Part shown: positions 29,138-44,019 of the stretch, piece by piece
Position numbering within the stretch: position 1 is the first letter of the stretch
How the letters are laid out: every line of letters starts with the position of its first letter
NCBI GenBank assembly: GCA_045124835.1
Contig: JBGVMO010000124.1
Location: forward strand, 1 to 60,537
DNA length: 60,537 nucleotides
Reading direction: 5' to 3'
From: Eubacteriales bacterium
GTDB lineage: Bacteria > Bacillota > Clostridia > Oscillospirales > CAG-272
Position numbers and translations under genes: made by a program
The notes under the pieces: generated by a model
The model's database searches: none
Seen by the model: the letters and a program-made list of their open reading frames with translations, nothing else
Told to the model about the DNA's origin: nothing

Positions 29138-30037
29138 TTAGGCTTCGCCTTCTTTTTTCTCGGAGGGCGTTGGCGCCTTGTCTTCACCGAGGGCGGTGCT
29201 TTCGGAAAGCGAGGGCAGAAAATCCTTAAAATATTCTTCAAGCAGGTCGCTTTGCTCCTCTAAATAGAGGGCCGTGTCCTTGGCAATGTTGCAATAGCCT
29301 GCCCGATAGCCCTTAATGCCGTTAAAAACCAGGGTGAAAACCTTGGAAATGTATCCGACCAAAAGGGCAGGGTTCGGGTTGATGATAATCTCGCAAAGCA
29401 CCGAAACCGAGAAAAATGCGGTAAAAAGAGAGGCCAGAAGGTAGGGTATAAAGCGGTGTCGCTTGGCGGCGGCAGGGCTTTTCGCAAGAGGAGGGCGGTA
29501 GCCGCCCTCCTCCCGACTTAGTAGAAGCATCGAGGGAAGAATGCGTACCTCGCGCATCCTTTTCACGCGCGAGAGGCCTCTTTTCTGCATAGCGGAAAGC
29601 GAGGCGGAGGCCGCATCCGCCAAGTCCTTCTTTGATAGACCGTAGTAGGAAAGCAAAGCGCTTCGCTTGCTTTCGGTCTCGCGCAAGCTGACCTTGTTGC
29701 AAAAGAGAAGAAGCGAGTTTATATCGCCCTTTTCCCGAAAGCGCAAATGCAAGGCGTCAGCGCGCGCCTTGGCGGCGCCAAATTCCTTTTCCTGACGGGC
29801 TCTGTCTGCGCCCGTCTCCGAGAGAGAAAAATACATCACGTAGGAGGCAAAAAGCAGAATGAGAAACTGTATAGAAAAGGAAAGAGAGCCTTGAAGAGAA
29901 ACGGTAATATCCGTGAAAAAGAGGGCGGATACCGATAAAAAGGTGAAAACGGCGCACACGATGCCGAGATTGGAAAGCACGCCGCGCAAGGCGCCGCGCT
30001 CCTCGCGAAGCGGCGCCTCGGAAAAGGGATTGGACAT
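29138..30037 (-). CDS. membrane protein, unknown function (2+2 TM with helical cytoplasmic linker)
   Basis: TAGGAGG RBS. Hydrophobic segments are LGIVCAVFTFLSVSALFF, FSIQFLILLFASYVMYF, FIPYLLASLFTAFFSVSVLC and ALLVGYISKVFTLVF. It is the last gene of the operon. Confidence 0.6.
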   Translation of the reverse strand: MSNPFSEAPLREERGALRGVLSNLGIVCAVFTFLSVSALFFTDITVSLQGSLSFSIQFLILLFASYVMYFSLSETGADRARQEKEFGAAKARADALHLRFREKGDINSLLLFCNKVSLRETESKRSALLSYYGLSKKDLADAASASLSAMQKRGLSRVKRMREVRILPSMLLLSREEGGYRPPLAKSPAAAKRHRFIPYLLASLFTAFFSVSVLCEIIINPNPALLVGYISKVFTLVFNGIKGYRAGYCNIAKDTALYLEEQSDLLEEYFKDFLPSLSESTALGEDKAPTPSEKKEGEA

Positions 30038-30045
30038 AGAACCTC

Positions 30046-30393
30046 CTATCTTTTTGTCTTTCCTTCATAGCGGCGCGCGAGCGCGAAGCATAGAGCGCCC
30101 AGCATACTGAAGGGAAAGGCAACGAGAGAAACGGCTATCAAGCCGTCAATGATGTTGCGGAACAGGGATAAAAAAAGCCAAAGCAAGAACCAAAGCATCC
30201 AAGCGGACGGGCTTTTCAGGGCTCTCTTAATCGTTTTGATAAAGGGCAAGGCCACCAAAGTCAAAACGGAAATGCCCAAAAAGGAAAGGGCGGACTTTCC
30301 ATCGGAAAGCCAGATGGGGAAATACTCCAAGGAGGAAAAGAGGGCGGGAAGAATGCAAAAGCCGAAGCCCGCGATTTTTAAACAGGGTATCAT
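30046..30393 (-). CDS. small 4-TM membrane protein, holin-like by size and position only
   Basis: 115 aa, almost entirely hydrophobic helices, with a short basic C-terminus RRYEGKTKR. Confidence 0.5.
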   Translation of the reverse strand: MIPCLKIAGFGFCILPALFSSLEYFPIWLSDGKSALSFLGISVLTLVALPFIKTIKRALKSPSAWMLWFLLWLFLSLFRNIIDGLIAVSLVAFPFSMLGALCFALARRYEGKTKR

Positions 30394-30433
30394 AAAATCT
30401 CCATTCTGCCAGAGGGGCGGTGGGCACGCGCCT

Positions 30434-31060
30434 TTAATTTTCCTCCAGCGTCTTTTGGAGCGCCAGATAACGCTCGCTCATCAAATCCTTTTGTGCCTGG
30501 GGAAGATTGACGCATTGCAGCATACGGAAGAGAAGCTCCGTTTCGGTTTGCAGGGCGGCGGTGGTTTTCTTTTTCTCCCTGACACTCTCTTCAAGCGCCG
30601 CCTCCAAGGCGGCAAGGCGCTTTTCTGTTTCACTTAAAACGCTAAGCGCGCTTTGCGAGGCCAAAACGGCGGCCTCGGCGCCCTCCTTTAAGACGGAAAG
30701 CTTTTCCTCGGCCAAGGAGGAAAACTCCTCTGCCTGTTTTCCGGCTTTTCCGCTTGCATCGCAAAGTGCGGAAAGCCCTGCGCGCAGCAGAGGCACGAGC
30801 CCCGTTTTGTAAAGTAAGGTTGGCACGAGAGAGGCAATAAAGGCAAGCGCGCAGAGAACCTTCTCGGCGTGCGCATTCCAAAAGTCTGAAACGGCCTCGG
30901 TAAAGGCGGTGCGGCTCATCTCTTCTTCTCCGTTTGTGCTTAAGGGCGCATTGCTTTGGCCTTCAATGTCCTCGGCAACGGCCGCTTCTGCGCAAACAGA
31001 GAGCGAAAAAAGCGCGGCCAAGAGTAAAACGAAAACCAAAAGGTATACGGTTTTTTTCAT
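30434..31060 (-). CDS. signal-peptide or N-terminally anchored coiled-coil protein
   Basis: ATG 31060 lies 6 nt after GGAGG. MKKTVYLLVFVLLLAALFSLSVCAEA is followed by one more hydrophobic helix and a long Ala/Glu/Leu heptad-like region. Confidence 0.6.
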   Translation of the reverse strand: MKKTVYLLVFVLLLAALFSLSVCAEAAVAEDIEGQSNAPLSTNGEEEMSRTAFTEAVSDFWNAHAEKVLCALAFIASLVPTLLYKTGLVPLLRAGLSALCDASGKAGKQAEEFSSLAEEKLSVLKEGAEAAVLASQSALSVLSETEKRLAALEAALEESVREKKKTTAALQTETELLFRMLQCVNLPQAQKDLMSERYLALQKTLEEN

Positions 31061-31077
31061 AAATTTCCTCCAAAATA

Positions 31078-31470
31078 TCAAATATCAAAGAGCGAAGGGC
31101 CGAGAAAGCGCGCAGAAAGGCGCGCTTCGCTTCTTTCAAGCCCTTGCAGGCGAAGCTGCATTTCATCGATTCGCTCCAAAAGCGCGAGAATAACCCGCTC
31201 GGTCGGGAAGGATATCGGCTTGACGAGAGCACCGTGGCGATATAGGCGCTGGCAGGGAAGCTTAACGCCCTCTATTTTGATAGCAACGGTGTTTTCCCCC
31301 TCGGCCAAATCGGTGGGAGAAATGCGAAAAATGCTCTTTTTTGCGCCCGCCTCAAGAGGCGCGCCGTTGATGCAAAGAACGCAATCCCTTTCCGTGTTGA
31401 CGTAAAAGGGCCCCTCCTCTTCCTTGGAGTCGGCAAAGATGCAAAAGCCATCGAGAATTTTTACGTTCAT
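31078..31470 (-). CDS. hypothetical protein (beta-rich N-terminus, short C-terminal coiled coil)
   Basis: 130-aa track ORF. Its ATG overlaps the stop of the XkdX-like ORF (ATGA at 31470-31467). Confidence 0.55.
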   Translation of the reverse strand: MNVKILDGFCIFADSKEEEGPFYVNTERDCVLCINGAPLEAGAKKSIFRISPTDLAEGENTVAIKIEGVKLPCQRLYRHGALVKPISFPTERVILALLERIDEMQLRLQGLERSEARLSARFLGPSLFDI

Positions 31471-31604
31471 GCCTCTCTCCTTTCACGCAAGATAGCGTCC
31501 TTCTCCGCTTCGGTAATAAAGCCCTTCTTAGCGGCGTCCTCCACTCTTTTTGAGGACCAAAGGCCCGATAAGTAAAAGGCGCGGATTTTTTCAAGCCTCG
31601 TCAT
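31467..31604 (-). CDS. XkdX-family small phage protein (45 aa; below the ORF-track cut-off)
   Basis: My own translation is MTRLEKIRAFYLSGLWSSKRVEDAAKKGFITEAEKDAILRERREA. This matches the XkdX pattern I recall (i..fY..G.w....V...V.kG.IT.eEy..I). Both ends overlap neighbouring ORFs. Confidence 0.55.
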   Translation of the reverse strand: MTRLEKIRAFYLSGLWSSKRVEDAAKKGFITEAEKDAILRERREA

Positions 31605-31749
31605 TCTTTTTTTCCTCCTCAAGTGAAATGCTTGCCATCATGGCAAGATAGTAAAGGTCTGCCTCAAGCGCGGCGTTTTTGGCGGCAAGGGCAGCGCATT
31701 CCTCCTGCGCCTCGTGCAAGGCGCGGTGGAGATTCTTGTAAATCAGCAT
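31591..31749 (-). CDS. 52-aa coiled-coil protein
   Basis: ATG 31749 follows AAAGGAGAA. Translation is MLIYKNLHRALHEAQEECAALAAKNAALEADLYYLAMMASISLEEEKKNDEA. I trimmed the track ORF because its N-terminus overlaps the upstream gene. Confidence 0.45.
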   Translation of the reverse strand: MLIYKNLHRALHEAQEECAALAAKNAALEADLYYLAMMASISLEEEKKNDEA

Positions 31750-31768
31750 AGCTTCTCCTTTCTTACGG

Positions 31769-32941
31769 TTAGGCGATAACGCACAGGGGGGCAATGCCCG
31801 CTGCAACGTTAGCGGCAATTTCGGTAATAGCGCCTGTATTCGTAACCGCCTTGCAGAAGCAAAGGGAGTCCTCGTTTACCGAGCGCAAAAGCCAAGAGGT
31901 CGGAACGCCGTTTTGATACTTGATGCGTGCCTTGTCCTTTTCGGCCGTGGGGGCGACGTTTTCGGAAAAGAAGCGGTAGTAGCGGTAAGGAGCGCCCTCG
32001 CTTTCACCTCCGTCGAGGGTGGGGGCGGCAAAGATTTCGCTTTCGGCGGGCAAGAAGAAAAGGTCCTCGGTTTCGGTATACGCACCGCCGAAAAACACCT
32101 TGTTTTCGCGGCTTTTCTTTTTTGCAGGGTAAAGCACTGCGAGAAAATCCTCGTCAAGTCCGTACATAAAGCCGTTAACGTCGTAATTCCAGGTGGCGTA
32201 ATGCTCGCACGCGGTGGGCGTGCCCTTAAAAATACTGCCCTTGGGGGCATTGCTGTTGAGATAGGTGCGAATCATGGAATAGCGCCAAAGGTTGTAGCCG
32301 TAGCGAATGCGCTCTGCGGAGGCAAGGGCGGAAACGGGGAGAGCCGTGCCGCTTTGCCCCTCGTATACCGAGACCGTCTCTATGGGGGTGGTGGCAAAGG
32401 CGGAGGTGAAGGTGGAAAGGGGGGTGCTTACGGCCGTTTTGCCCACCGTCCACGGAAAGAAGAGGTGGCCGCCCGCCGGCACGTCCTTTTGCAGCGTGAA
32501 GTGGTAATAGCAGTCCCCACCCTCAAGCAAATCCGTGGTAGAAAGAGGCTTCTTTCCATACAGATAAAAGGAATAGGTGCCTGCCGGGAGCTTTGAGGAG
32601 CAAAAGAAAAGGGAGTGCGAGAGCGCAAAGGGAAGCAACGCGATAGGGTTATGCAGCTGAAGGGTAAGAGAGTGGCGCGGCGTGCCGTCGGCGTGGGATA
32701 CGCTCTCGTCGTCAAGCCCAACAACGTCCCAAATGAGATTTTTTCCTTCCTTTTGGCAAATCAGCTGATCCCCCACCGAAAGCAGCTCCTTGGCAACGCC
32801 TGTGCGCACCAACGCCTGAAGCTCCTGCCATGAATTCGGGTACAGCGTTTCCTTGCGCGCCAAAACGCGCAAAAGGGCGTTCTGCGTGTCCATTTTTTCG
32901 GCAAAGGTAGTGTCGGATAAAATGTTAATAAATGTTGACAT
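31769..32941 (-). CDS. tail-fibre / receptor-binding-like protein
   Basis: 390 aa with a GAAAGGAAA RBS. Its position is distal to the large tail protein. The C-terminus ...PTSWLLRSVNE...AGIAPLCVIA resembles the WWLRS...RPA ending of DUF6273-type domains, recalled from memory only. Confidence 0.4.
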   Translation of the reverse strand: MSTFINILSDTTFAEKMDTQNALLRVLARKETLYPNSWQELQALVRTGVAKELLSVGDQLICQKEGKNLIWDVVGLDDESVSHADGTPRHSLTLQLHNPIALLPFALSHSLFFCSSKLPAGTYSFYLYGKKPLSTTDLLEGGDCYYHFTLQKDVPAGGHLFFPWTVGKTAVSTPLSTFTSAFATTPIETVSVYEGQSGTALPVSALASAERIRYGYNLWRYSMIRTYLNSNAPKGSIFKGTPTACEHYATWNYDVNGFMYGLDEDFLAVLYPAKKKSRENKVFFGGAYTETEDLFFLPAESEIFAAPTLDGGESEGAPYRYYRFFSENVAPTAEKDKARIKYQNGVPTSWLLRSVNEDSLCFCKAVTNTGAITEIAANVAAGIAPLCVIA

Positions 32942-32962
32942 TTTGATTTCCTTTCGAGATTT

Positions 32963-34015
32963 TTAAGCCTTTTCGGTCAAAAGAATGCCGGGCATTCCAT
33001 CCTTCAAGGCAAGCGAACAGAGATAAACCTGTCCTGTTTTTTCGTCGGTCAGCGTGTGCAATGCCTCAAGCTCCGCTTTTTTGGCAAAATCGGCAGAGCA
33101 AAGTCCCTTGTTGAGCGTCAGGCTGTTGCCGACGGCGGTTATTTCCGTCACAATGTCGCCCTCACCCTCGGCGCGAAGTACCGTGGTTTTGACAAGGTCG
33201 CCAACGCGAATGTAAATATGATCGGCGTTTTCCGAGGAAAGCGTCAGGTCGATGTAGGCCTCGCCAACCTCGTAGGAGGCAACGGGCACCCCCGCCACTT
33301 CGCACGTGCGAAGCACGCCGCTTTTAACAACCAAATCTCGCGGAATGTTGATATCGACCGAGGAAAGCGCGGGGGAATAAAGTGGGTCTCCCATGGCGTC
33401 CTCTCCTGTGCGGTATTCAAGGCGGTAGACCTTTGCATACTCGTTTGAGGGGGCTTCGGCAATGCGAAAGCCGTAAGGGAGGCTTCTTTTCAGGGAAGCA
33501 AGGGCGTCGCGCCCCTCCTTTTCAATGGCATCGGTGCGCGCCTTTATCGCGGCATCTTCGGTGGCGCGGGTGCTTTCCTCGGCCAAAAGGCGCGCAAGTA
33601 TGGCCTCCTTGCCCTCGGAAAGAGCGTCAAGCGTCTTGGAAAAGGCTGTAAGCTCTGCTTTGCACGCAGTGAAGGCCTCAGAAAGACTGGCGTCGCCATC
33701 AAGGGAAAGGTAAGTGGAAAAGCGGCCGGAGGTAATGTCGGCAAAGAGCTCCTCCAAGGAATGCCCCTTGGCAATACCCGTTGCAACGAGCGCGGCCAAG
33801 GAAGCACTGCGCGCTTCATCCGTATAAAGTCCCAAGGCGTCGATTAGGGCGTTGAAGCGCTCGACAAGCAAAAGCGGAAGCTTATCGAAGGCGGCGCGCA
33901 GCTCCTTGGCAGAAAGCGTCCGTCCTCCGTAAAGAGAAGGCGAAGAGGGGCGCGTTGCGAGCGAGGAAACGGTGCTTTCCTCAAGCTCGGCATTTAAAAT
34001 TTTGGATATACTCAT
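32963..34015 (-). CDS. fibre-like structural protein
   Basis: 350 aa. The N-terminal segment RPSSPSLYGGRTLSAKELRAAFDKLP...NALIDAL is followed by a coiled coil and a beta-rich C-terminus. This layout is typical of trimeric phage fibres. Assignment is by architecture only. Confidence 0.4.
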   Translation of the reverse strand: MSISKILNAELEESTVSSLATRPSSPSLYGGRTLSAKELRAAFDKLPLLLVERFNALIDALGLYTDEARSASLAALVATGIAKGHSLEELFADITSGRFSTYLSLDGDASLSEAFTACKAELTAFSKTLDALSEGKEAILARLLAEESTRATEDAAIKARTDAIEKEGRDALASLKRSLPYGFRIAEAPSNEYAKVYRLEYRTGEDAMGDPLYSPALSSVDINIPRDLVVKSGVLRTCEVAGVPVASYEVGEAYIDLTLSSENADHIYIRVGDLVKTTVLRAEGEGDIVTEITAVGNSLTLNKGLCSADFAKKAELEALHTLTDEKTGQVYLCSLALKDGMPGILLTEKA

Positions 34016-34078: not shown

Positions 34079-36994
34079 TCAGAGCTTACCTGCGGGGGTG
34101 TAGGAGTAGGCGAGGCTGTAAATGCCAAAGGGAGAGCGAAAGACCTCCGAAAAGAAGGCCAGCTGCTTCTCGCTAAAGCCACGCTCCTTTTCCCGAATGG
34201 GAAGGGTAACGGCGGTGTCCTCGGAGAAGGAAAAGGCAGAAAAGTCGGCGCCCTCAAAATCTGCCGTATCCGTTTGGCAGATATCAACGGTGTGCCAGGC
34301 GCGTTTGTCCGTTCGCGCCTCAACGCGAAGATGGACCGGGCCAAGCAGCTTTAAGCGCAAGGCAAGCGTGCCTGAAAGGGTATTCTTGCGTAGCTGTGGA
34401 AGCCCACCGTCATCCTTGGCCGTGGCACAGCCAACGGGATAGCGGTGACCGTTGAAGGAATAGTAAAAAGCAGGGATGCGCCCGGGCTTTCCCTCCTCCA
34501 AAAGTGCGGCGAGAGAAATCTCCTCGCCGTTTTGGTAGACAGGGAAGCTTCCCACCTCCCGAAAGCTCTCCTCTTCCTTGGCGTATAGGGGGATATGCGA
34601 AATGGCGTCCTCACTTTGTATGTCGCCGCCCTTAAGAGAGAGGGGCGTGTATCTGCCGTTTTGTAAGCAATACAGCGAAGAGGGCAGGGTACGGTAAAGA
34701 GAAAGTCCGCGCTTGTCGGTGTTGAAGCAACCGAGCTTGCCGTTTTCCGTTGCGAAGTAAAGGGCCTTTTTGCCTGCGACAAGCAGGCTGGCAGGCGAAA
34801 GAACGCCCCCCTTTCGTTCTCCGTCCGTATCAACGGCGTAGCGGAGGTCTCCGTTCTTTACGTAGTAAAGCATCTCGCCCTCTTCGCTCAAGGTCGAATA
34901 AACGGTTCCCTCTGCTTCCTCGCCGCCTCTCTCGGAAAGCTGAATATGGGCGCCGTCAGCCCCCTTTGGCAAGGCCTCTGCATAGCGGTAAAGAGGGGTA
35001 TCGTTTTCAAAATCACCTATCCCTGTGATAAAATACCATTCGTATTGAAGCTCGCCCGTTGGATAGCGGTAGGTTTCCCGACTGTCTGCCAGGTACAGAT
35101 TTCCGTCTGTCAGCAGGCATAAATACCCTTCAAAAACGGCCATTTTAGCACAGGAGAGCTTTTGGCGGCAAAGGCGAAGATTGACAGAACGGGAGCGATT
35201 GACAAGGGAGCGCTCCAAATTGACCGCTTGACGCGAAACGGATAAAAGCCCGCCCTCTGTCAGAAAAACGGGGTCATCGCGAAAGTTGATGGCGCCCCCG
35301 ACAGCGCCAATGCCCGCAGCGCCCGACTTTGCAGGATAAATGCGCGGCACAAAGGCGTGCGTCGTGCTTTCGCCGGAATGGTAATAGATACCGCTTTCCG
35401 AGGTGCCGTCCTCCTTGATAACCATCAAAACGTCTCCCGTACCCAAAAGGGCGCGGTTGGGAACGGAGGAAAGACCGTCGTTGAAGTAATTGAGGTTGCC
35501 GATATAGAGGGGGTTGTTGTAGCCCGTCTCGTCGGGGGCGGAGAAGAAAACGGTGTTGGGAAGAAGCGGATTTCCCGTAAAGAAAATGCGCCCATCGTAT
35601 TCTCCCGTGGCGCGACAGCCAAGCACGGCCTCTCTGCCTGTCAAGGAAAGGCCGCCCTCGCCAAAGGCCTTGAAGCCCTTAGGGGTGGCGAAAAGGGAGG
35701 GAGAGGCCAAAAGCTGCAAAGTCAGGCTTCGCCCCAAAAGCACGGCAGGGTCTGAAGTCAAAAGACAAACGGAAGAAACAAGGCCGTCCTTTACAAGCGG
35801 CACGTAGCGCACGAAGGCGCCGTCAAGCAAGGAGCCGCCCTCGCTGATCCTCTCGCTTCCCAAAAAGGCTTTTTCAACGGAAAGGGCAGGGGAATATACG
35901 GGGCAAACAAAAAGCTTCAAGGCGCGCTGCGTGGCTGTTGCCTCAAAATACACCGTCACCGTCTCGGGAAAGGGCGGGTCATCCTCGAAGGAGATGCCGC
36001 GAAAGGCGGCCTCGGTGTAAGGAAAATAAACGCTCGTTAAGCGCTCGTCTCCCATAAAGGCGTCCGCGCCCACGGAGGAAAGGCTCTCGCTCAGCGTGAC
36101 GGTGGTTAGAAAGGGGCAAAAAGCAAAGGCGTGATTCCAGATATAACGTACCGAGCTTGGCAGGGTGATTTCGGAAAGAGAAAGACAGCCTGCAAAGGCA
36201 TAAGCGCCAATTTCGGTGACGGTGTCGGGAATGGAGACGGAAACGAGGTTAGTAAGCCCCGAAAAGCCGTTTGCCGCAATGCCCGTTACGATATAGGTAA
36301 CGCCCTCGATGTCCGCAAAGCGCGGAATGATAACGCTGCTTGGCGAGGCTATCGGGCCGCCCGCTTTGACCGCACAGCAGCCCGATGCGTTGGGCAAGGG
36401 AAGAAAAACGAGGTTGTCATACGGCGTGCTTTCTCCCTCCTCCAGCGCCTCGGCGGAAAGCACCTCGCGCACCTCATCGGTTAAAAGGTTGCGCTGCTCG
36501 TGGTGGCTCCCGTTATAAAAAACGGTTGGCACGTAGGGCAAATCCGTTTCGTCGGGTAAGGCACGGCAAGCGCCCACTTCATCAATGCGAAACAGCTTGC
36601 CGTCAACCAGAAGATAAAAATATTCGCCCGACTGAAAGCCGCAGCCCTCCTTATTTGGAAGCGCGGAGAAGATGGGGGCCTGCGCGCTGAGCGCCGCAGG
36701 CTGATGACAAAGCGCGGTGCTAAAGCGAAAAAGCTTTTCGTCTGCGTGTAGCAATAAGTATTCCTCACCCTTGATTCTTTGTATGAAAAGACCGTATATG
36801 CGCTTGCCGAAGGAGGCAAGAATGCGGTAGCCGGGAAAGGCCTCAACGGCCGGGCCATCGTCGCTTTGCCAATCCTTCCACATATTTTTCATATTGGCGA
36901 AGCGTTCAAAGGATAGGGCGGTATCGTCCACGGAAAAATCAACGCCGCGAAAGCGCGGAATGCTTCGGGTATAAACGCGAGAGGTGTTCTTCAT
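34079..36994 (-). CDS. 971-aa virion protein (nozzle/tail-hub-sized) with embedded BspA-type leucine-rich repeats
   Basis: Start trimmed to ATG 36994, which overlaps the upstream stop as ATGA. The LRR_5-like repeats are IPDTVTEIGAYAFAGCLSLSEITLPSSVRYIWNHAFAFCPFLTTVTLSESLSSVGADAFMG (about 35990-36334). The remainder is beta-rich and aromatic-rich, unlike a tape measure. Confidence 0.55.
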   Translation of the reverse strand: MKNTSRVYTRSIPRFRGVDFSVDDTALSFERFANMKNMWKDWQSDDGPAVEAFPGYRILASFGKRIYGLFIQRIKGEEYLLLHADEKLFRFSTALCHQPAALSAQAPIFSALPNKEGCGFQSGEYFYLLVDGKLFRIDEVGACRALPDETDLPYVPTVFYNGSHHEQRNLLTDEVREVLSAEALEEGESTPYDNLVFLPLPNASGCCAVKAGGPIASPSSVIIPRFADIEGVTYIVTGIAANGFSGLTNLVSVSIPDTVTEIGAYAFAGCLSLSEITLPSSVRYIWNHAFAFCPFLTTVTLSESLSSVGADAFMGDERLTSVYFPYTEAAFRGISFEDDPPFPETVTVYFEATATQRALKLFVCPVYSPALSVEKAFLGSERISEGGSLLDGAFVRYVPLVKDGLVSSVCLLTSDPAVLLGRSLTLQLLASPSLFATPKGFKAFGEGGLSLTGREAVLGCRATGEYDGRIFFTGNPLLPNTVFFSAPDETGYNNPLYIGNLNYFNDGLSSVPNRALLGTGDVLMVIKEDGTSESGIYYHSGESTTHAFVPRIYPAKSGAAGIGAVGGAINFRDDPVFLTEGGLLSVSRQAVNLERSLVNRSRSVNLRLCRQKLSCAKMAVFEGYLCLLTDGNLYLADSRETYRYPTGELQYEWYFITGIGDFENDTPLYRYAEALPKGADGAHIQLSERGGEEAEGTVYSTLSEEGEMLYYVKNGDLRYAVDTDGERKGGVLSPASLLVAGKKALYFATENGKLGCFNTDKRGLSLYRTLPSSLYCLQNGRYTPLSLKGGDIQSEDAISHIPLYAKEEESFREVGSFPVYQNGEEISLAALLEEGKPGRIPAFYYSFNGHRYPVGCATAKDDGGLPQLRKNTLSGTLALRLKLLGPVHLRVEARTDKRAWHTVDICQTDTADFEGADFSAFSFSEDTAVTLPIREKERGFSEKQLAFFSEVFRSPFGIYSLAYSYTPAGKL

Positions 36995-37581: not shown

Positions 37582-38643
37582 TTACAGCTTGGTGCTGTTC
37601 TCCACCTCGGCGGCGGAATCAACAGCCAGAAGAATGTGCTTGTAGGAGCCAAAGCCCACGCCGAAGCGGCATCTGCCGTTCCAGATGTAGTTGCCCGTGT
37701 GGTTATCCACCCAGTTGGAGACGGTCAAGGGCACGCGGTTGAAGAACATATTGCCGCAAAGGTTCTTGTTGGCCTCGGAGGACATAATCATCACGCGGTC
37801 ATCCTCCGTCTGCCAATCGGGCATAACGACGACGTTCCAGTTGCCAAACTGCAGATTGATATCATTGTAGCCGTTGCCAAGCGCGCCCTCGGAGCCGCAA
37901 ACCTTCTTGGCAATTGCTTCCGCGGCGGGACGGTTGCCGGGGAGAATGATGGTGTCGGCGGTGTAGCCGAGAATTTCGCCGTTCTCGTCCTTCATATTGC
38001 GCAGCTTGGAGGAAAGCTCGCCGAGCGCCGCCTCAAAGGCGGCGGTGGAATAAACGCGCTCGCCCTCGGCACCGCTCTTAAAGAGGTCGCCGAAGAAGAA
38101 GTTGCTCTGGGTGCCCTCCTTGTCGCCTGCGCCCCATTTGTGCGCGGTGTGGAAAAGGGGAAGACCGTCGGGCGCGGTTAAGTCAAGGTTGGCTCTGGCA
38201 AAAACGCCTGACTCCTTGGTGCCGTTTGCCAAGGCGTACTCGCAAATTTTGTGCATCGTCTTGTAATAGGCACGGGTGAAGTTCTCCGCGCGGCGCTTGG
38301 CGTCGGCGGCAACGCCGTAGTTGGCGTCCTCCATCATCTGCGCGGTGATGGTAAACTCCTTCATAAACTGGATGTGCTCGATGAACTTGCGGTAGGTTTC
38401 GCGAATTTCATCGTTCTCGGCGCCTGCACCCTCCTCGGTTGCGGCAAAAACGCCAAATTCGTTCTGGCCAACCACCGTCTCGCCAAAGCGCGTGGAGCGT
38501 TCGACGTTAAAGAGCCAGTCGCAAATGCCGCCTCTTTTGGTCTGCAAATCGCTCTCGTGCTCAATAATCATCTTCAGGGGTGTTTCCAGCTTGCCGATTG
38601 CGGCGTTGTTCAAGCCGCTGTTTTCAGAATAAATAATGGACAT
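37582..38643 (-). CDS. major capsid protein (HK97-fold, Mu GpT-like by memory)
   Basis: 353 aa with a GAAAGGAAA RBS. It follows a scaffold-like ORF. The C-terminus NYIWNGRCRFGVGFGSYKH resembles GpT-type head proteins. Confidence 0.65.
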   Translation of the reverse strand: MSIIYSENSGLNNAAIGKLETPLKMIIEHESDLQTKRGGICDWLFNVERSTRFGETVVGQNEFGVFAATEEGAGAENDEIRETYRKFIEHIQFMKEFTITAQMMEDANYGVAADAKRRAENFTRAYYKTMHKICEYALANGTKESGVFARANLDLTAPDGLPLFHTAHKWGAGDKEGTQSNFFFGDLFKSGAEGERVYSTAAFEAALGELSSKLRNMKDENGEILGYTADTIILPGNRPAAEAIAKKVCGSEGALGNGYNDINLQFGNWNVVVMPDWQTEDDRVMIMSSEANKNLCGNMFFNRVPLTVSNWVDNHTGNYIWNGRCRFGVGFGSYKHILLAVDSAAEVENSTKL

Positions 38644-38667
38644 AACAGATTTCCTTTCAGTTGGTTT

Positions 38668-39081
38668 TTATATACGGGAGAAGCGGACGAGAACGGCGTC
38701 ACCGGGAAGGGCCGCGCCGCGCTTGTCCATCAGAATGGCGCCGCGAAGAGCGCCCTCTCTTTTTTGAGAGGAGAGCCTTTGACCGTCGGCAGAGAAGAGG
38801 TATTCCTCGCCGTCGATAAGGGCGGCCGCCTCGCTTGCAAGCGGTACGGAAAAAATCATATCCTCCGTAATGCGATAAACGAGAGGGGCGGTTGTCTCTT
38901 GTTCGTCTCTTTGTGCAACGTAGGTGGGCAGAAGAGACAGGGTATCGGAGGCGGGAATAAGCCTTCCGTCCTTAAGGGCGTAAGCAACACCCTTCTTTAC
39001 CGCCGCTTTTTCCGTGAGTGCAAGATGCTCAGGCTCAGGCACGTTGGGGCCGCGGCCAATGATTTTTATCAGCGTCAGCAT
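38668..39081 (-). CDS. hypothetical head-module protein (137 aa)
   Basis: Track ORF with an AAAGGA RBS, between the scaffold-like and capsid genes. It may be a decoration or accessory protein. Confidence 0.5.
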   Translation of the reverse strand: MLTLIKIIGRGPNVPEPEHLALTEKAAVKKGVAYALKDGRLIPASDTLSLLPTYVAQRDEQETTAPLVYRITEDMIFSVPLASEAAALIDGEEYLFSADGQRLSSQKREGALRGAILMDKRGAALPGDAVLVRFSRI

Positions 39082-39097
39082 AAAAAATCCTTTCGTT

Positions 39098-39625
39098 TTA
39101 ATAAGAATAGGTGGATTTGACGCGGCGGTAGAGCTTTTGTATCTCAGCGTCCGTTAAATCCGAAAAAAGCGCTTTGGCGTGGCGCATTTCCTCGCCGGAC
39201 AGCGTGCCGAGAGGCGAGCTTGCCCCCTTGCTTGCGCTGGGAAGCAGGTGCGCCTTGCCGTTTTCTTTGGGAAAACGGGGGTTAGAGGCGGCCAAGGCCT
39301 CTCTGACAGAAAGACCCATATCGCGTAAGGCGGCAAAGCGGCGCGCAAAGGGAAGCTGGCTTAAGTGGGAAAGGGCGAGATAGGTGGGGTCAAGCCGCTT
39401 GATTTCTGCCAAGTCCTCCTCGGCCAAGCGCGCGTAATCCTCCTCTGTCGGTTGCGCGGAAATCGCCTCCTCTTCTTCGGTCGAGGGGGCTTCTTCTTCG
39501 CGCAAGAGGCTTTCCTCTTCGCTCAAGAGGCTTTCCTCTTCGCTCGTTTCGAGAGCAGCTTCGTCCGTTTGGACTTCTTCAAGGGAAGAGGCCTTCGCCT
39601 CTTTTGAAACGTTCAAGTCTTCCAT
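39098..39625 (-). CDS. acidic scaffold-like protein
   Basis: 175 aa. The N-terminal half is very Glu/Ser-rich (EEESLLSEEESLLREEEAPSTEEEE). It precedes the capsid gene and has an AAAGGAAAA RBS. Confidence 0.5.
   Translation of the reverse strand: MEDLNVSKEAKASSLEEVQTDEAALETSEEESLLSEEESLLREEEAPSTEEEEAISAQPTEEDYARLAEEDLAEIKRLDPTYLALSHLSQLPFARRFAALRDMGLSVREALAASNPRFPKENGKAHLLPSASKGASSPLGTLSGEEMRHAKALFSDLTDAEIQKLYRRVKSTYSY
39503..39544. repeat. perfect 21-bp tandem duplication (2 copies) inside the scaffold-like gene
   Basis: caagaggctttcctcttcgct occurs twice in a row. It is in-frame and encodes the repeated EEESLL heptapeptide. Confidence 0.9.
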
Positions 39626-39646: not shown

Positions 39647-39787
39647 TTATCTCTGCTTTTTCTTGGCGCGCAAATCGTCGCCCTTCGTCACGGTGGACTT
39701 GGGCTCGTTTTCATTTTTGTGCGGTGCGGCGATGGGCTGCAGGCTGCCTGTTGCGTAAGGGTTAACCCTCGTGGTTTGCTTTTTCAT
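39647..39787 (-). CDS. 46-aa basic protein (below the ORF-track cut-off)
   Basis: My own translation is MKKQTTRVNPYATGSLQPIAAPHKNENEPKSTVTKGDDLRAKKKQR. It has an AAAGGAA RBS and exactly fills the gap between neighbouring ORFs. Confidence 0.35.
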   Translation of the reverse strand: MKKQTTRVNPYATGSLQPIAAPHKNENEPKSTVTKGDDLRAKKKQR

Positions 39788-39805
39788 ATTGAAATTCCTT
39801 TCGTT

Positions 39806-40492
39806 TTAAAAATAGTCCTCGGGATTGTAGTTTGCGTTCAAAGCGCTGTGGGCGGTTTTGGCAATCTCCTCGGCAACTGCGGGAGAAAGACCGTAGGAAA
39901 TGGCATAGTCATACGTAGCCTTGTAGGGCATATAGTGATTCAAAGCATAGCTCAGAACCGCTTTTTTGACGGAGGAGGCGTTCTTTACCATTGAAACGCT
40001 CTTTTTGGCCATACGTGCCGCCGTTTCCGCGTCAAGCCCGTTTTCCGTCAGGAAGGCAGCGGCACTTTCCTCATCCTCCACGTTTTGCGAGAGGAGGGAA
40101 AGGAAAAGGCTTTTGCGCCTTTCGGCCTCCTTTTCGGCCGTCTTGACAGCCTCATCCCTTTCTTTGTCAAGATAAGCGGCGTAAGCCGTTTGATTGGCAG
40201 CGTTTGCTTTGGTATACGCGCTCTTTGCGTCACGAACGGCTCTTTGCTTTTCGGTATAGGCAAGACCGCTTAAATAGTCGCTGTATCCGCTTCCCGTCAA
40301 GCCGCGCGCCAAAAGAGCGGCGCCTCGCGTGCCGTATGTTGCCTTGGCCTCGGCCGCGGCCGTGTCGGCCGCTCTGACTGCGTTTTTATACGCGCCCTCG
40401 GCGCTTTGGCCGTATTTGACAAGCCAGCTTTCGTAGTCCTCAATTTTTTTGTTTTGCAGGTGTTGTTTGATGAAATCCTCAAGCGTTGCCAT
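39806..40492 (-). CDS. hypothetical head-module protein (228 aa, Ala-rich helical)
   Basis: ATG 40492 lies 7 nt after AAGGAA and overlaps the portal end by 14 nt. Its position immediately after the portal suggests a minor head or internal protein. Confidence 0.5.
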   Translation of the reverse strand: MATLEDFIKQHLQNKKIEDYESWLVKYGQSAEGAYKNAVRAADTAAAEAKATYGTRGAALLARGLTGSGYSDYLSGLAYTEKQRAVRDAKSAYTKANAANQTAYAAYLDKERDEAVKTAEKEAERRKSLFLSLLSQNVEDEESAAAFLTENGLDAETAARMAKKSVSMVKNASSVKKAVLSYALNHYMPYKATYDYAISYGLSPAVAEEIAKTAHSALNANYNPEDYF

Positions 40493-42278
40493 GTGCGTTT
40501 CCTTGTTCACTCCTTTCAGTAGAGGGAAGAGGCGGGCTCTCTTCCTCCTTTTCCGTTAAGGCGCGGAAATACTCCACGTTTTCTCTGGCATAGGGGTAAT
40601 GCGCGCGCTCCTGACATTGCCAGTAGTGTAAGAGCGTTGCGTTGCTTTTCGGGTCGCCCAGCGTGCCGGCTTGCAGGTTCTCCAGGTTTTTCTGCCAGAG
40701 TGCGTCTCTTTGCTGCTCTAAGGCGCCGTTTTGATCCACCGAGAAGAGAAAGCCGTCGTCATAGCTGTATTGGCCGCTTTTCTCGTCATACAAAAGAAAG
40801 TCGTAACGGTTGAAGGCGGTGTGGTGCCGCTTTCCGAAGGCGTCGCGGTAGGAAAGGGGGCGCGGCTCGTCGGCATAAGCCAAGAAAAACTCAAAGAGAA
40901 GTCTGTCAATATCGGCATAGGCCGCCTGCTTCATCTTGCGCTTGGAATCAAGGCGGCCTGCCGCCTGCTCAACCTGAATGCGCTTGGCATAGCCTGACTG
41001 CGCGCTTGCATCGCTCATGCCGAGATAAGAGTCGGTAATGCCGAGAATGCGCTTGGCGTGCTGATAAAGCCGCTCGGATTGCTCAACATCCTGGGCAATG
41101 ATGGGAGTCGTGTCCAAAACACCGTAGCGCTCGCGCTCGTCTCCCGAGCGAAGCTTGATAACCTGGCCGAAAATGGAGTTGTCAAGCGTCAGCTCTGCGT
41201 CATCGGGTAGAATGGGGGTGATGCCCGAGCGCATCAGCTTTTGCAGAATGCGGCTTTCAATCTTGTTGATTTGCTGCTGCTGGGGGCGGATAAAGGCACA
41301 GTCCGACTGTCCCAAAAGCGACCTTTCCTCCGAGGTGTTTTTGCGGATAACGATGGGAAAGCGCCGCGGTCTGTAATAGGGCAGTCGGGTTGGGCGCAGG
41401 CACTCTTGGCACTCTCCGTCTTCGATAACGGGAGAGAAGGCGGGAATGACCCTGCCGCTTTCAAGCAAAATATCCTCGGATAAAATTTCCTCCTCGTCGG
41501 AGGCAAGATAGAAGGCGGGGCTTTGACAGGTGCAAAGGGCTTCTTTTTTATGGCAATGTCGGCACTTTTTCGTTTTTCTTGCGTAGTAGTCCTCAAGATC
41601 GGAAAGCACGGTGTCACCGCAGTAAATGAACTGTGAAACAAAGCCCTCGTCATTTCGCCAGAAGCAGACTATCATTTCCAAAACGTCATCCTCGTCCTCA
41701 CCCTCGCCGAGCGCGGCGGCCGCCTCTTCGTTCAGATTGAAGCGGCGAACAATGGCGTTTTTGGTGGTGTCGAAGCGCAAAAAGCAGTATTCCATATCCG
41801 CAACGTCATAAACCTCGGCCTCGGGAATAAAGTCCATCGGGGAAAGGCAGGAAACGCGCACACCGCCCGACACACCGCGGTAAAGAAGGGAGTCGTCCCA
41901 TTCCACAAGCCAGACACTACCGCCGTAAATGTAGGTAAAGCGCTCGTCAAGGTCATTCAGTCTTTCAAAGGGAAGCTCGTTGCGCAGCTGGGAGCAAAGC
42001 CGCTCGATAGCCTTGGCGTTTCTGTCGTTTTGCTCGGTATAGTGCTTGGCCTCGGCCGCAGGGGCGGGAATTTGCGTGGAGATTTCGGACTCAATCAGCT
42101 CGTAGGTGATGTTTCTCACGACGGAGGCCGCCTCGGATGAGCCGTCTATTTCCTTTGCACCCTTGTATTGCGACAAATGTCGCTCCAAGCGCAAAAGAAG
42201 GGCTCCCTGCTTGTCGCGGTTTTTTTGATACAGACTCTTAAAAAAGGAAAGCCTGTTATCAATGTGGGAAAGATTCAT
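40479..42278 (-). CDS. portal protein (by position and size), with Cys-rich insertion
   Basis: Start trimmed to ATG 42278, which overlaps the TerL stop as ATGA. 599 aa. It lies directly downstream of TerL. The C-terminal LHYWQCQERAHYPYA-type ending is reminiscent of portals. Confidence 0.6.
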   Translation of the reverse strand: MNLSHIDNRLSFFKSLYQKNRDKQGALLLRLERHLSQYKGAKEIDGSSEAASVVRNITYELIESEISTQIPAPAAEAKHYTEQNDRNAKAIERLCSQLRNELPFERLNDLDERFTYIYGGSVWLVEWDDSLLYRGVSGGVRVSCLSPMDFIPEAEVYDVADMEYCFLRFDTTKNAIVRRFNLNEEAAAALGEGEDEDDVLEMIVCFWRNDEGFVSQFIYCGDTVLSDLEDYYARKTKKCRHCHKKEALCTCQSPAFYLASDEEEILSEDILLESGRVIPAFSPVIEDGECQECLRPTRLPYYRPRRFPIVIRKNTSEERSLLGQSDCAFIRPQQQQINKIESRILQKLMRSGITPILPDDAELTLDNSIFGQVIKLRSGDERERYGVLDTTPIIAQDVEQSERLYQHAKRILGITDSYLGMSDASAQSGYAKRIQVEQAAGRLDSKRKMKQAAYADIDRLLFEFFLAYADEPRPLSYRDAFGKRHHTAFNRYDFLLYDEKSGQYSYDDGFLFSVDQNGALEQQRDALWQKNLENLQAGTLGDPKSNATLLHYWQCQERAHYPYARENVEYFRALTEKEEESPPLPSTERSEQGNAHGNA

Positions 42279-43645
42279 AGTGGTTCTCCGTATTTTTGTT
42301 TTAGGTATCGCTTTTGCTCGTCGGAGGCATGGCGGTAGTCCTCCCACAAGTCGTCGTTCCACGCGCGCCGCTTCGTTGCCCCCTCCTCCTTGGCGGCGCG
42401 CGTGAAGGTGATGGCAAAGCCGCGCAAGGCGTCGGGCGCGTGGGTAATGGCGTGGGGTTCGGTCAAAACGTCACTTGGTGCATCGGGGTTTATCTGGAGC
42501 ATCGGCAAGCAACGGCAAAGCTCGCGGCACTGTCTGAAAATGCGCAGGCGAGGCGTTCCGTCTTCACGAATTTTAAGCAATTCCTTCAGGGCAAGCCAAC
42601 CGGTCTCGCGGTTGTTGCCGGATCGTGTGAAGCTGACGCCGTGCTCTGCAAAAAGAAGTGCCTTGCTCTTTCCTGTTTCTTGCGAACGGCTCCATAAATC
42701 AGGCGGTGCCAAGGTGGCGTAAATTTTGTCCTCCCCGTTCCGTTTTCGTATGGCGGCGGCCGCCTCCGAGATAATGAGATTTGACTCGCAAAGCTCCTTG
42801 TAAACATAAACGTCCTCGTTTGGTGCAATAGCCACCCATAAGCAAGCCAGTCGGTCAAGTCCGTAATCAATCGTGCGATACCGTCGCCAGTCGGACGGAA
42901 TGGGAAAGGGGTCAACCACGTGAAGCGCCTCGGAAAATTCGGGGAAGTACTGCCCCTCAAAAATGTTCCAGTCGCCGTACAGTAGGGCTTTCCGTTGGGC
43001 CTCGGGAAGCTCAAGCAGGCGCTTTTTGTAGTCTGGGTCGCCCTCCGTCAAGAAAAGATTGTCATCAATAAAGGAGGGAAGAAAAATGCGGGAGTTCTTT
43101 CCCTCGGAAAAGAGGGTATTGGGAGGAGAAGGATCGATAAACCGTTCCTTAACCCAGGCGTGCCCAATGCCACCGGGGTTGGTGGAGGATTTCACCTGCT
43201 TCGGATAGCCGTTGGCCCCACGCAAACGGGAGATCAGATACAGGTATTGAAATTCGGTGAAGTGCGTCAGCTCGTCAAAGCGGATAACGTCGTATTCGGC
43301 GGACTGATACTGGAAAACGTCGTTCTCCACGGCGCAGTACCCGAAGTCAATGACGCTGCCGTTTTTGAATTTCCCTGTGTGATTTGAGGAATTGTAACGG
43401 TAGATTTCATTGGGGTAAAGACCGAGGGAAACGCGGATAAGGGATTTTTCCAGCTCTGCATAGGTGCGCCGCAGAATCAGCTGCTTGGATGCAGGATAGC
43501 GCAAGGCGTACACGAACGCGTCCACCAACTGTCCGTAGGATTTCCCGCCGCCCGCCGCCCCGCCAAACAGAACCTCTGTGGCGGTGGACGAAAGGAAATC
43601 GTATTGCCGTTTTGTAACGGATAAGGAAAGCTCGGTGCTTTTCAT
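42275..43645 (-). CDS. terL: terminase large subunit
   Basis: Start trimmed to ATG 43645 (MKSTELSLS...), which overlaps the TerS stop as ATGA. It has Walker A LFGGAAGGGKSYG and Walker B YDVIRFDELTHF. The C-terminal nuclease-like region includes RTIDYGLDRLACLWVA. Confidence 0.88.
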   Translation of the reverse strand: MKSTELSLSVTKRQYDFLSSTATEVLFGGAAGGGKSYGQLVDAFVYALRYPASKQLILRRTYAELEKSLIRVSLGLYPNEIYRYNSSNHTGKFKNGSVIDFGYCAVENDVFQYQSAEYDVIRFDELTHFTEFQYLYLISRLRGANGYPKQVKSSTNPGGIGHAWVKERFIDPSPPNTLFSEGKNSRIFLPSFIDDNLFLTEGDPDYKKRLLELPEAQRKALLYGDWNIFEGQYFPEFSEALHVVDPFPIPSDWRRYRTIDYGLDRLACLWVAIAPNEDVYVYKELCESNLIISEAAAAIRKRNGEDKIYATLAPPDLWSRSQETGKSKALLFAEHGVSFTRSGNNRETGWLALKELLKIREDGTPRLRIFRQCRELCRCLPMLQINPDAPSDVLTEPHAITHAPDALRGFAITFTRAAKEEGATKRRAWNDDLWEDYRHASDEQKRYLKQKYGEPL

Positions 43646-44019
43646 TCTGTCGGCTCCTTCACCGAAACGGTAAGGGAGAAGGCCTCTGTCCCACCGTCCT
43701 CCTCCTTGTCGGAGTAGCCGTAGCGCGCGGACAAAAGAAATTTGGCAAAGGAGGAATCCAAACGGCGACAGAGCGCCCCATCCGTGATTCTGTCCTTCAA
43801 AATTTCCTCGCATTCCTCGTAGGCCTCCTTGAAGGCCTCGCTCTTTTCCCGCAAAAGAGAGAGCGCCTTAACAGAAAGGCCTTCTCTTCTTCCAAAGCGG
43901 ACAAAGGAGGGAAGAAGCTCCTTGTATTCGCTGCCCTCGCAGCCTGCCGTTTCAAAATAATGAAGCATTTTTTTCGCTAAGCGCGCCTCGGTGCTTGCTT
44001 TTTCGGCCTCGTTTTCCAT
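43642..44019 (-). CDS. terminase small subunit-like protein
   Basis: ATG 44019 follows GGAAAGGAAC. 125 aa and helical, immediately upstream of TerL and coupled to it. ...SSFAKFLLSARYGYSDKEE resembles TerS C-termini. Confidence 0.5.
   Translation of the reverse strand: MENEAEKASTEARLAKKMLHYFETAGCEGSEYKELLPSFVRFGRREGLSVKALSLLREKSEAFKEAYEECEEILKDRITDGALCRRLDSSFAKFLLSARYGYSDKEEDGGTEAFSLTVSVKEPTE

Follow-up and report, generated by a model that had tools for sequence, protein, structure and literature searches.

A short-tailed virion operon between housekeeping genes

The 60,537-nt stretch of contig JBGVMO010000124.1 (assembly GCA_045124835.1, Eubacteriales bacterium), referred to below as the window, contains at positions 29138–44019 of the minus strand an operon of 18 genes, which probably represents a domesticated podovirus-derived element resembling gene transfer agents (GTAs), i.e., a viriform, predicted to be unable to replicate, integrate or regulate itself as a phage. 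The operon contains a phage structural and packaging set without replication, integration and lysogeny-control genes of its own, as the definition of a viriform implies. The element very probably forms short-tailed particles that are filled with DNA and whose production the host controls. An earlier reading of this DNA (the original prediction) had proposed a GTA-like or domesticated short-tailed particle, and this proposal is supported by the identities of the genes, the fold of the tail nozzle protein, vertical co-divergence and purifying selection. Comparisons of related loci show that the element is inherited vertically along with the host chromosome and that each gene is under purifying selection.

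The 18 co-directional open reading frames (ORFs), all starting with ATG, run from 44019 to 29138 and form a single 14.9-kb operon. The original prediction described their number and direction, the ribosome-binding sites and the overlaps, and re-reading of the ORFs and junctions bore this out. Four-nucleotide ATGA overlaps join the genes of the small (TerS) and large (TerL) terminases, TerL and the portal, the adaptor and the 971-aa protein, and the XkdX-like and 130-aa proteins; overlaps of 14 nt are found at the portal/228-aa and 52-aa/45-aa junctions, the gaps elsewhere being 8–63 nt. Shine–Dalgarno sequences of the AAAGGA or GGAGG type precede most of the 18 genes.

PHROGs and Pfam searches, with NCBIfam added for ten proteins, revealed no integrase/recombinase, replication, repressor, tube, sheath, tape-measure, protease or lysin families among the cluster proteins, in agreement with the earlier claim that integrase, replication, regulator and endolysin genes are lacking in the cluster. 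A tRNA scan of the window found none, the Rfam scan at gathering thresholds gave 0 matches, and no att-like direct repeat beyond chance was found between the cluster boundaries (the longest shared k-mer is 10 nt, while shuffled sequences reach 12), so the absence of tRNAs and repeats claimed earlier holds. The composition, judged host-like by eye in the original prediction, is indeed close to that of the surroundings (GC content 0.544 in the cluster vs 0.526 in the remaining window). The flanks consist of housekeeping genes, as was stated previously: nrdG, nrdD and trxB are located on one side, and DUF554, pgsA, rimO, a DnaJ-domain gene and DUF5685 on the other, with DUF554 transcribed divergently from the operon.

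Packaging and head proteins

The first nine genes of the operon encode the following proteins:

43642..44019, minus strand: g01, small terminase TerS, 125 aa (phrog_3064 'terminase', 1.9e-9)
42275..43645, minus strand: g02, large terminase TerL, 456 aa, ATPase and nuclease (phrog_979, 5.7e-46; Terminase_6N, 2.5e-11)
40479..42278, minus strand: g03, portal, 599 aa (phrog_156 portal, 1.4e-31)
39806..40492, minus strand: g04, Ala/Lys/Glu-rich protein following the portal, 228 aa (no family match in PHROGs, Pfam or NCBIfam)
39647..39787, minus strand: g05, basic micro-ORF, 46 aa (48–80% identity in 17 other GTDB-representative loci; dN/dS 0.12–0.23)
39098..39625, minus strand: g06, acidic scaffold-like protein between portal and capsid, 175 aa (weak phrog_35275 match)
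38668..39081, minus strand: g07, protein beside the capsid gene, 137 aa (position conserved; the fastest-evolving gene, dN/dS 0.24–0.36)
37582..38643, minus strand: g08, major capsid protein, HK97 type, 353 aa (phrog_371 major head protein, 7.3e-8)
36991..37563, minus strand: g09, head-to-tail adaptor between capsid and nozzle, 190 aa (phrog_13046, 1.3e-9)

The ratios of non-synonymous to synonymous substitution rates (dN/dS) given here and below were obtained against the related loci L002, L003 and L004. The terminases are among the best-preserved components. TerS (dN/dS 0.06–0.15) shows a similarity to PF16677 GP3_package (2e-5) below the Pfam cutoff. Among cultured phages, Bacillus phage PK1 has the TerL closest to that of the operon (42.5% identity; dN/dS of g02 0.045–0.069). 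All 61 TerL sequences compared (the window and 60 related loci) keep Walker A, Walker B and the three nuclease Asp motifs unchanged, and none has an internal stop. The portal (dN/dS 0.08–0.10) is 46–50% identical to portals encoded on IMG/VR phage contigs of 35–48 kb.

The capsid protein g08 (dN/dS 0.06) gave tblastn matches to annotated capsid proteins of Pelagibacter podophages and phage PK1 (26% identity to the latter), and its homologues carry the Phage_capsid_4 domain; the NCBIfam search with g08 gave no match at E<0.1. Only a poor AlphaFold 2 (AF2) model of g08 (pLDDT 50) was obtained from 26 near-identical sequences, and the Foldseek matches, mostly phage capsid proteins together with two encapsulin shells, were not significant; the capsid assignment therefore rests on sequence evidence. 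PDB sequence-profile searches for the capsid, portal, adaptor, g11 and g12 yielded nothing useful. The similarity of the adaptor g09 to SU10_adaptor (0.002) and that of its homologue on MT836833 (7.4e-5) are both below the Pfam cutoff.

The position and composition of g06, detected in 72 of 77 distant loci, suggest a scaffold, and g04 may be a minor head or ejection protein. Partial matches to g04 (30–49% identity over 0.2–0.7 of its length) were found in a 580–820-aa protein encoded behind the portal in true phage contigs; in the phage relatives described below, the place of g04 is taken by a giant polyvalent protein. The supposition that g04 is a remnant of this polyvalent protein was dropped, as the g04 profile detects none of the giants.

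Tail nozzle, putative fibres and membrane proteins

The second half of the operon encodes the tail and a set of small and membrane proteins:

34079..36994, minus strand: g10, tail nozzle by structure, 971 aa, with BspA-type leucine-rich repeats (LRR) inserted at about residues 200–440 (LRR_5, 8e-21)
32963..34015, minus strand: g11, fibre-like protein, 350 aa (N-terminal third conserved, remainder variable)
31769..32941, minus strand: g12, candidate variable tail fibre or receptor-binding protein, 390 aa (DUF6273, 7e-11; phrog_19280, 2e-22)
31591..31749, minus strand: g13, coiled-coil micro-ORF, 52 aa (window clade only; dN/dS 0.13–0.37; no family match)
31467..31604, minus strand: g14, XkdX-like micro-ORF, 45 aa (PF09693 Phage_XkdX, 6.9e-5, 23.2 bits vs the cutoff of 23.5; phrog_134, 8.8e-5)
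31078..31470, minus strand: g15, protein without transmembrane (TM) segments, 130 aa (window clade only, except for one weak partial match)
30434..31060, minus strand: g16, membrane-anchored coiled-coil protein, 208 aa (by hydropathy, N-terminal signal or anchor and a second hydrophobic segment, 2 TM)
30046..30393, minus strand: g17, small, holin-sized membrane protein with 4 TM by hydropathy, 115 aa
29138..30037, minus strand: g18, membrane protein, 299 aa (by hydropathy, N-terminal TM pair, charged middle and C-terminal TM region, 3–4 TM)

The structure of g10 provides the clearest link to short-tailed phages. The AF2 model made with 54 homologues (pLDDT 89, pTM 0.80) found in the PDB, by Foldseek, best matches that are all podovirus nozzles, including those of cyanophage A4 (6.9e-18), Klebsiella phage Kp9, HRP29, T7 gp12 (2.5e-13), SU10 and P22 gp10 (8eap_D, 6e-9); in BFVD, the matches were named 'stabilization protein' and 'tail tubular protein B'. 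The PDB sequence-profile search with g10 detected the LRR domain alone. The original prediction had left the nozzle fold of this ORF to a structural comparison, which thus confirmed it. In some nozzle homologues, the LRR is absent or replaced by another insert.

The predicted fibre region is a variable part of the element. About the first 30% of g11 alone matches in 63 of 77 distant loci, where the protein has about 156 aa and is duplicated at times; no family or PDB match was found for g11, which may serve as a fibre or an anchor. The g12 gene is confined to the window clade, its place in other clades being filled by other genes, and the whole stretch g12–g15 is restricted in the same way, apart from the partial g15 match listed above.

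The last genes recur more widely: tblastn detected g16 in 38, g17 in 51 and g18 (dN/dS 0.13–0.22) in 45 of 77 distant loci, in the order g16-g17-g18. Membrane or coiled-coil proteins had been expected at the last four positions; TM segments are indeed predicted in g16, g17 and g18, but not in the 130-aa g15. The holin-sized g17 may have a holin-like role. No PHROG, Pfam or NCBIfam match was found for g16–g18, and a PHROGs scan of 68 g16–g18 sequences gave no shared family; likewise, no holin or lysin family was revealed in g11–g18, in these 68 sequences or in the scanned representatives of the variable-region families.

Related loci and their chromosomal context

A scan of GTDB, using one genome per species, found 168 loci, and the best 80 were fetched. 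All 80 come from metagenome-assembled genomes (MAGs), which were assigned to uncultured Clostridia, Eubacteriales or Oscillospiraceae and obtained from the guts of ruminants, other animals and humans. A broader capsid search gave 1700 clusters (at 90% identity) with E<1e-5, the top 120 being all at least 79% identical and their contigs reaching 358 kb. With 328 representatives at E<1e-3 among 1.84 billion, the capsid family is narrow, and the distant representatives that were looked up (10 of 10) are anonymous metagenomic proteins.

The conserved gene order is TerS, TerL, portal, g04, (g05), g06, g07, capsid, adaptor, nozzle, g11, variable fibre region, g16, g17, g18, and at most related loci it forms one contiguous operon. 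The median identity outside the window clade decreases from 78.7% for the capsid to 66.6% for TerL, 53% for the portal, 34% for g17, 31% for the nozzle and 27% for g18. Tailed phages usually have TerL as their most conserved gene; a capsid that outranks TerL and the portal across species is unusual and hints at an extra constraint on the shell.

At every locus with readable flanks, the neighbours are housekeeping genes. An ABC-F ATPase gene is located directly upstream of TerS at 23 loci, often beside genes for amino-acid ABC transporters; among the further flank sets are GroEL, UDP-GlcNAc 2-epimerase, MutS2-like together with pantothenate kinase, and OGG/MGDG synthase/miaA/galK, and the downstream neighbours include an MFS transporter, a DinG-like helicase with PNP, or cysK. 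The trxB–DUF554 site is common to the window, L002, L003, L004 and three further contigs; the conservation of this position, considered telling in the original prediction, thus extends to species with rimO only 81% identical. An empty trxB–DUF554 site was not found in the relatives, and DUF554 homologues of 55–58% identity occur without the element in a different context.

The search for phage lifestyle genes in the relatives, likewise suggested earlier, had a nearly uniform outcome: Pfam scans of flank families at the fetched main-clade loci found no recombinase, replication or repressor domains, the exception being L088, on an IMG/VR contig, with a few phage-like genes. IMG/VR contains only fragments of the chromosomal clade, with no contig having terminal repeats or representing a free genome. 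A plasmid location was considered and dropped, as the capsid search of PLSDB gave no match.

Vertical descent and selection

In the tree built with TerL, portal and capsid, the clades coincide with the flank types. For 22 species, the identity of the flanking ABC-F gene (59–97%) correlates with the identity of the element (66–97%) with r=0.877 (Mantel test; none of 2000 permutations reached this value), and the GC content of the cluster tracks that of the flank from 0.41 to 0.67 (r=0.92, 55 loci); these tests of vertical descent are based on flanking genes and not on a full species tree. The dN/dS values of all 18 genes are 0.045–0.36, compared to 0.04–0.17 for the flanking host genes. Against L002, the synonymous divergence (dS) of the cluster is 0.48–1.34 and that of the flanking host genes is 0.52–0.77; hence, the element is as old as its neighbours. 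Selection with dN/dS below 1, proposed as a check in the original prediction, is thus evident in every gene (dN/dS <0.37), with dS values like those of the host genes nearby.

Putative regulatory elements

Three non-coding elements were recognised at the ends of the operon:

44107..44135, minus strand: promoter-like element CCCCCTT-N16-TACAAT, about 90 nt upstream of the TerS ATG
44059..44083, minus strand: terminator-like G+C hairpin with a T-run, within the 5' leader of the operon, between the promoter-like site and the TerS ATG
29090..29131, minus strand: intrinsic terminator closing the operon, a 17-bp stem and T-run directly after the g18 stop

The promoter-like pattern has its sole match in the 60-kb window at this site (chance expectation 0.01) and recurs upstream of TerS in L002, L003 and L004, giving CCCCCTT-N16/17-TACAAT for the window clade. 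The ABC-F clade has its own conserved version, TTTGGA-N8-ATACTTAC-N17-TATAAT-GGnCTT, and further clades have GTACCCA...-N-TAnAAT, both also upstream of TerS. Across L002–L081, these motifs are clade-specific and conserved well beyond a plain sigma-70 site, and a hairpin-rich leader follows each of them. The element at 44107..44135 is a likely promoter. In the predicted fold of the leader, the T-run after the hairpin pairs with the Shine–Dalgarno region of TerS (z = -1.97, a weak signal), and the hairpin may be regulatory, acting by attenuation or anti-termination. Conserved promoter motifs combined with a structured leader suggest that the operon has a regulator of its own or is subject to anti-termination, as is the case for the Caulobacter GTA. 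The original prediction assumed a terminator on each side of the cluster; the one on the trxB side (29131–29090) is real, but the TerS-side hairpin belongs to the leader of the operon itself and does not separate the operon from DUF554.

A sigF-like gene is located near the cluster in L006 (690–1993) and L013, behind two genes of the sizes of spoIIAA and spoIIAB, and sporulation-type sigma genes are also found about 1 kb past g18 in L044, L050, L061, L076 and L088, in two separate clades in all. Control of the operon by sporulation sigma factors was considered and dropped: as judged by eye, the promoter motifs differ from the SigE, SigF, SigG and SigK consensus sequences, and the adjacency was taken as host context. 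The proximity of these genes also raises the possibility of particle release by mother-cell lysis.

Phage relatives

Capsids with 40–55% identity to g08 are encoded on contigs of 41.8–43.7 kb, where a gene for a polyvalent protein of 2600–2750 aa (LPD38, PBECR3, ART-PolyVal) directly precedes the scaffold-like and capsid genes. Taken more broadly, relatives with 26–55% capsid identity are found on contigs of about 42–44 kb. Giant polyvalent proteins are carried by the phage relatives L097, L104, L105 and L106, and L104 and L105 also possess two Sequestin genes and a DUF6275 gene. Across L037, L049, L088, L097 and L104–L106, the polyvalent proteins comprise 1000–2750 aa, contain LPD38, LPD3, PBECR3 nuclease and ART-PolyVal domains and are located at the stretch occupied by g04 in the window. 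The clusters at L037 and L097 seemed to be split; a simpler explanation is that a 7.8-kb polyvalent gene pushes the portal past the fetched flank. In the more distant L168 and L172 (capsid identity of 27–29%), a DnaB or primase-helicase gene lies upstream of the packaging genes.

The closest INPHARED records are unannotated human-faecal fragments. The human-faecal virome fragment MT836833.1 (L082) encodes TerL, portal (34%), capsid (28%), an SU10-like adaptor and a 621-aa nozzle-like protein, and a tyrosine integrase gene (9662–10774) directly follows the structural genes; this fragment may illustrate how a relative that is still temperate is organised. Bacillus phage PK1 is temperate and encodes a recombinase, a repressor, Erf, SSB and a sigma factor. 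The phage relatives fall outside the chromosomal clade in the capsid tree.

Two MAGs contain two loci each with differing capsids, JAZRQS01 (L011 and L037) and JAZNDG01 (L049 and L066); one two-locus MAG pairs a minimal element with a polyvalent version, which could reflect either true co-residence or strain mixing in the bin.

Comparison with known systems

The closest known counterpart is FpGTA, a podovirus-like GTA-like element of Faecalibacterium prausnitzii (Borodovich et al., bioRxiv 2024.11.15.623857 / Nat Commun 2026, PMC12946183). FpGTA consists of a 10.5-kb operon I, encoding head, packaging, adaptor and nozzle proteins, and a 5.5-kb operon II, encoding a fibre, a receptor-binding protein, holin and endolysin, located about 125 kb apart; its particles measure 40 nm, contain 8.4–8.9 kb of host DNA and are supported by proteomics (PMC12946183). 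The claim of the original prediction that a podovirus-style GTA in Clostridia would be undescribed is superseded by FpGTA (PMC12946183). The literature search found no paper describing the present element family; a 2026 preprint proposed further GTA candidates in mouse-gut Clostridia.

Both elements occur in gut Clostridia (Eubacteriales), share the podovirus-type order TerS, TerL, portal, capsid, adaptor, nozzle, and are placed among host genes without integrase or replication genes. The adaptor and nozzle of FpGTA were annotated from PDB entries 7sp4 and 8eap; the g10 model matches 8eap as well, and the adaptor of the present element has a weak SU10_adaptor similarity. The ten ORFs from TerS to the nozzle span about 10 kb, comparable to operon I, and the fibre and membrane block of about 5 kb is positioned as operon II. 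In contrast to the two separated operons of FpGTA, the element described here is one contiguous operon, and its nozzle has an LRR insert. Compared by annotation, the FpGTA capsid RCH50849.1 belongs to the 'N4-gp56 family' (Supplementary Data 2), whereas g08 is Phage_capsid_4-like without an NCBIfam match. A single Prp-like gene lies between portal and capsid in FpGTA, but four unrelated genes do so here; the recognisable holin and endolysin of FpGTA contrast with three orphan membrane proteins and no lysin found in the present operon. FpGTA is known from particles, DNA of about 9 kb and proteomics, and the present element is predicted from its genes. Judged by the annotations, its origin may be independent of FpGTA.

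Similarity to the tails of the podoviruses T7, P22 and SU10 includes the nozzle fold of g10, the weak SU10_adaptor match and the order capsid-adaptor-nozzle-fibres; the identity is, however, only 7–13%, an LRR is inserted in g10, and no internal core, ejection or polymerase genes are recognisable. Functional podoviruses have early, replication and lysis genes, whereas only a virion module, chromosomally located, is present here. The podophages of about 42 kb (L097, L104–L106) and PK1 share with the element the scaffold-like gene, capsid (40–55% identity in the podophages), adaptor, nozzle and g11 in the same order, but the polyvalent proteins and Sequestin of the podophages have no counterpart in the window element, nor do the replication genes of L168 and L172, the integrase of MT836833 or the recombinase, repressor and sigma factor of PK1.

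With RcGTA (Rhodogtaviriformidae), the element shares the size of a head–tail cluster of about 15 kb without replication, integration and regulatory genes, as well as vertical inheritance, purifying selection and host-like composition (taken for RcGTA from review papers). RcGTA is siphovirus-like, with a tape measure and a tube; neither such families nor an RcGTA-type capsid or portal were detected in the present operon, the proteins are unrelated, and the host is a Gram-positive anaerobe. PBSX of Bacillus subtilis is likewise a domesticated DNA-packaging phage-like particle of a Gram-positive bacterium, and an XkdX-like micro-ORF is present near the fibre/lysis end of our operon. PBSX is a 28-kb element of the myovirus type with a sheath, tube, baseplate, its own repressor, a sigma-like activator and xhlAB-xlyA lysis genes, and counterparts of these were not found in the window element. 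Capsid-forming phage-inducible chromosomal islands (PICI) and satellites possess an integrase, replication genes and a repressor without tail genes, whereas the present operon has adaptor, nozzle and fibre genes, and no integrase or replication genes were found in it.

Proposed working and alternative explanations

In the scheme outlined here, we only infer that particles are produced, which DNA they package, that it reaches recipients, what triggers production and what g04, g05, g07, g13 and g15–g18 do. A host-controlled signal would fire the conserved promoter upstream of TerS, the hairpin-rich leader with its terminator-like stem may gate read-through, and the 18 translationally coupled genes would be expressed together. 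The capsid protein would assemble on the portal with the acidic scaffold-like g06; TerS and TerL would cut the DNA and pump it into the head, presumably by headful packaging of chromosomal DNA, because no element-specific replication enriches the element's own DNA. The adaptor and nozzle would then close the portal, the LRR insert of the nozzle and the variable fibres g11 and g12 may bind the surface of related cells, and g16–g18 might mediate release with lytic enzymes encoded elsewhere.

Several observations weigh against domestication as a GTA-like particle. Since the phage relatives with 40–55% identical capsids have genomes of about 42 kb, the head might hold the whole 15-kb operon, unlike the heads of classical GTAs. 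L037, L049 and L088, located inside the high-identity clade, keep the polyvalent protein (L037:365-8188, L049:86-4621, L088:80-3211), so not every member is equally reduced, and L088 has also an adjoining DNA methylase gene and another phage-like gene. L019, L021 and L027, which group together in the capsid tree, have an order resembling a circular permutation (OGG/MGDG synthase, g06, capsid...g18, then directly TerS, TerL and portal); such an order would result if a tandem duplication had lost its outer parts or if a circular form had integrated anew. The cluster of L077 is the one clear outlier of the GC correlation (0.52 vs 0.40 in the flank), which hints at occasional mobility and may reflect a recent transfer or a foreign flank. 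At most loci, the flank examined covers only about 1.5–4.5 kb, and an endolysin and a regulator were not found within the 60-kb window, the visible part of the genome.

The alternative that survives best, though we regard it as unlikely, is a PBSX-like killer or defensive particle: domesticated, DNA-containing and short-tailed, and selected for killing competitors or for altruistic lysis rather than for DNA delivery. All the evidence for domestication fits it equally well; the variable parts are the fibre region (the g11 C-terminus and g12–g15) and the nozzle insert, as arms-race targeting predicts, an XkdX-like micro-ORF is present, as in PBSX, and the authors of the FpGTA study leave the same alternative open for FpGTA (PMC12946183). 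Against this, TerS and TerL belong to the genes under the strongest constraint (dN/dS 0.045–0.15) and the ATPase and nuclease motifs of TerL are invariant, which argues that DNA packaging itself is under selection. Moreover, PBSX is a contractile-tail particle, and podovirus-type particles are not known to have killing activity.

A still-mobile minimal element, phage- or satellite-like, spreading horizontally with the replication and integration functions of the host or a helper phage and merely seeming vertical, appears more doubtful still. Integration of a circular 15-kb form would lead to the permuted order in L019, L021 and L027, and the nested members with polyvalent proteins, the phage-like neighbours in L088, the GC mismatch of L077, the two copies (L011 and L037) in one MAG and the presence of element fragments in IMG/VR would agree with mobility. 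This explanation is opposed by the lack of recombinase, replication and repressor domains in any flank family scanned, the lack of att-like repeats and tRNAs in the window, the divergence that follows the adjacent host gene (r=0.877), the GC content that follows the host (r=0.92), dS values equal to those of the flanking genes, and the absence from IMG/VR of terminal-repeat contigs or free genomes of the clade; moreover, satellites are not known to have a full virion gene set. A decaying, functionless prophage remnant left by a recent loss of lysogeny and replication modules is very improbable: it would account for the presence of structural genes only and for the lack of a detectable regulator or lysin in the cluster, but all 18 ORFs are intact with dN/dS <0.37, micro-ORFs included, the same reduced content is kept across species saturated at synonymous sites and spanning 26 GC points, and TerL has no internal stops in 61 sequences, so that these comparisons exclude a recent deletion remnant and neutral decay.

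Within the preferred explanation, a domesticated GTA-like particle, a more specific and tentative proposal is that the element is an independently domesticated podovirus, forming a new viriform family apart from FpGTA and fixed before the radiation of a large uncultured group of gut Clostridia (now of 41–67% GC). Some of the 'orphan' GTA-like packaging (4–10 kb of host DNA) in gut lineages that lack FpGTA or have no identified cluster could also be due to this element. GTA-like packaging without an identified cluster was reported for Gemmiger, CAG-115, Onthomonas, UBA1829, QANA01, HGM11616, Ruminococcus_C callidus and others (PMC12946183).

GTAs were long thought to be nearly confined to Alphaproteobacteria, and a podovirus-like one was shown in Faecalibacterium only in 2024–2026. 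The element family, with 168 loci in GTDB species representatives, is a defined and widespread candidate to account for capsid-mediated DNA mobilisation of unexplained origin in gut Clostridia. Its domestication signature is unusually clean, combining co-divergence with host genes, amelioration of base composition over 26 GC points and dN/dS well below 1 everywhere. If such elements are active, rumen and human gut communities would have in them a major path for exchanging DNA or for antagonism by particles; they would also provide a second, independent case of the taming of a short-tailed phage. Aspects of particular interest include how the polyvalent protein and early genes were lost, the LRR receptor module borne by the nozzle, and the three membrane proteins found where a holin and an endolysin would be expected.

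Neighbouring genes and antisense ORFs

Three long ORFs (289–711 aa) are antisense to other genes, at 25833–27968 (minus strand, opposite nrdD), 38251–39120 (plus strand, opposite g07 and the capsid gene) and 28212–29105 (minus strand, opposite trxB). They were rejected as genes and interpreted as shadow ORFs of moderately G+C-rich DNA; the same artefact split some families in the ORF clustering. The NrdD protein encoded at 25662–28067 of the window (plus strand), next to nrdG and trxB, has 801 aa and a C-terminal glutaredoxin/thioredoxin-like domain, which looks like a redox module fused to the enzyme.

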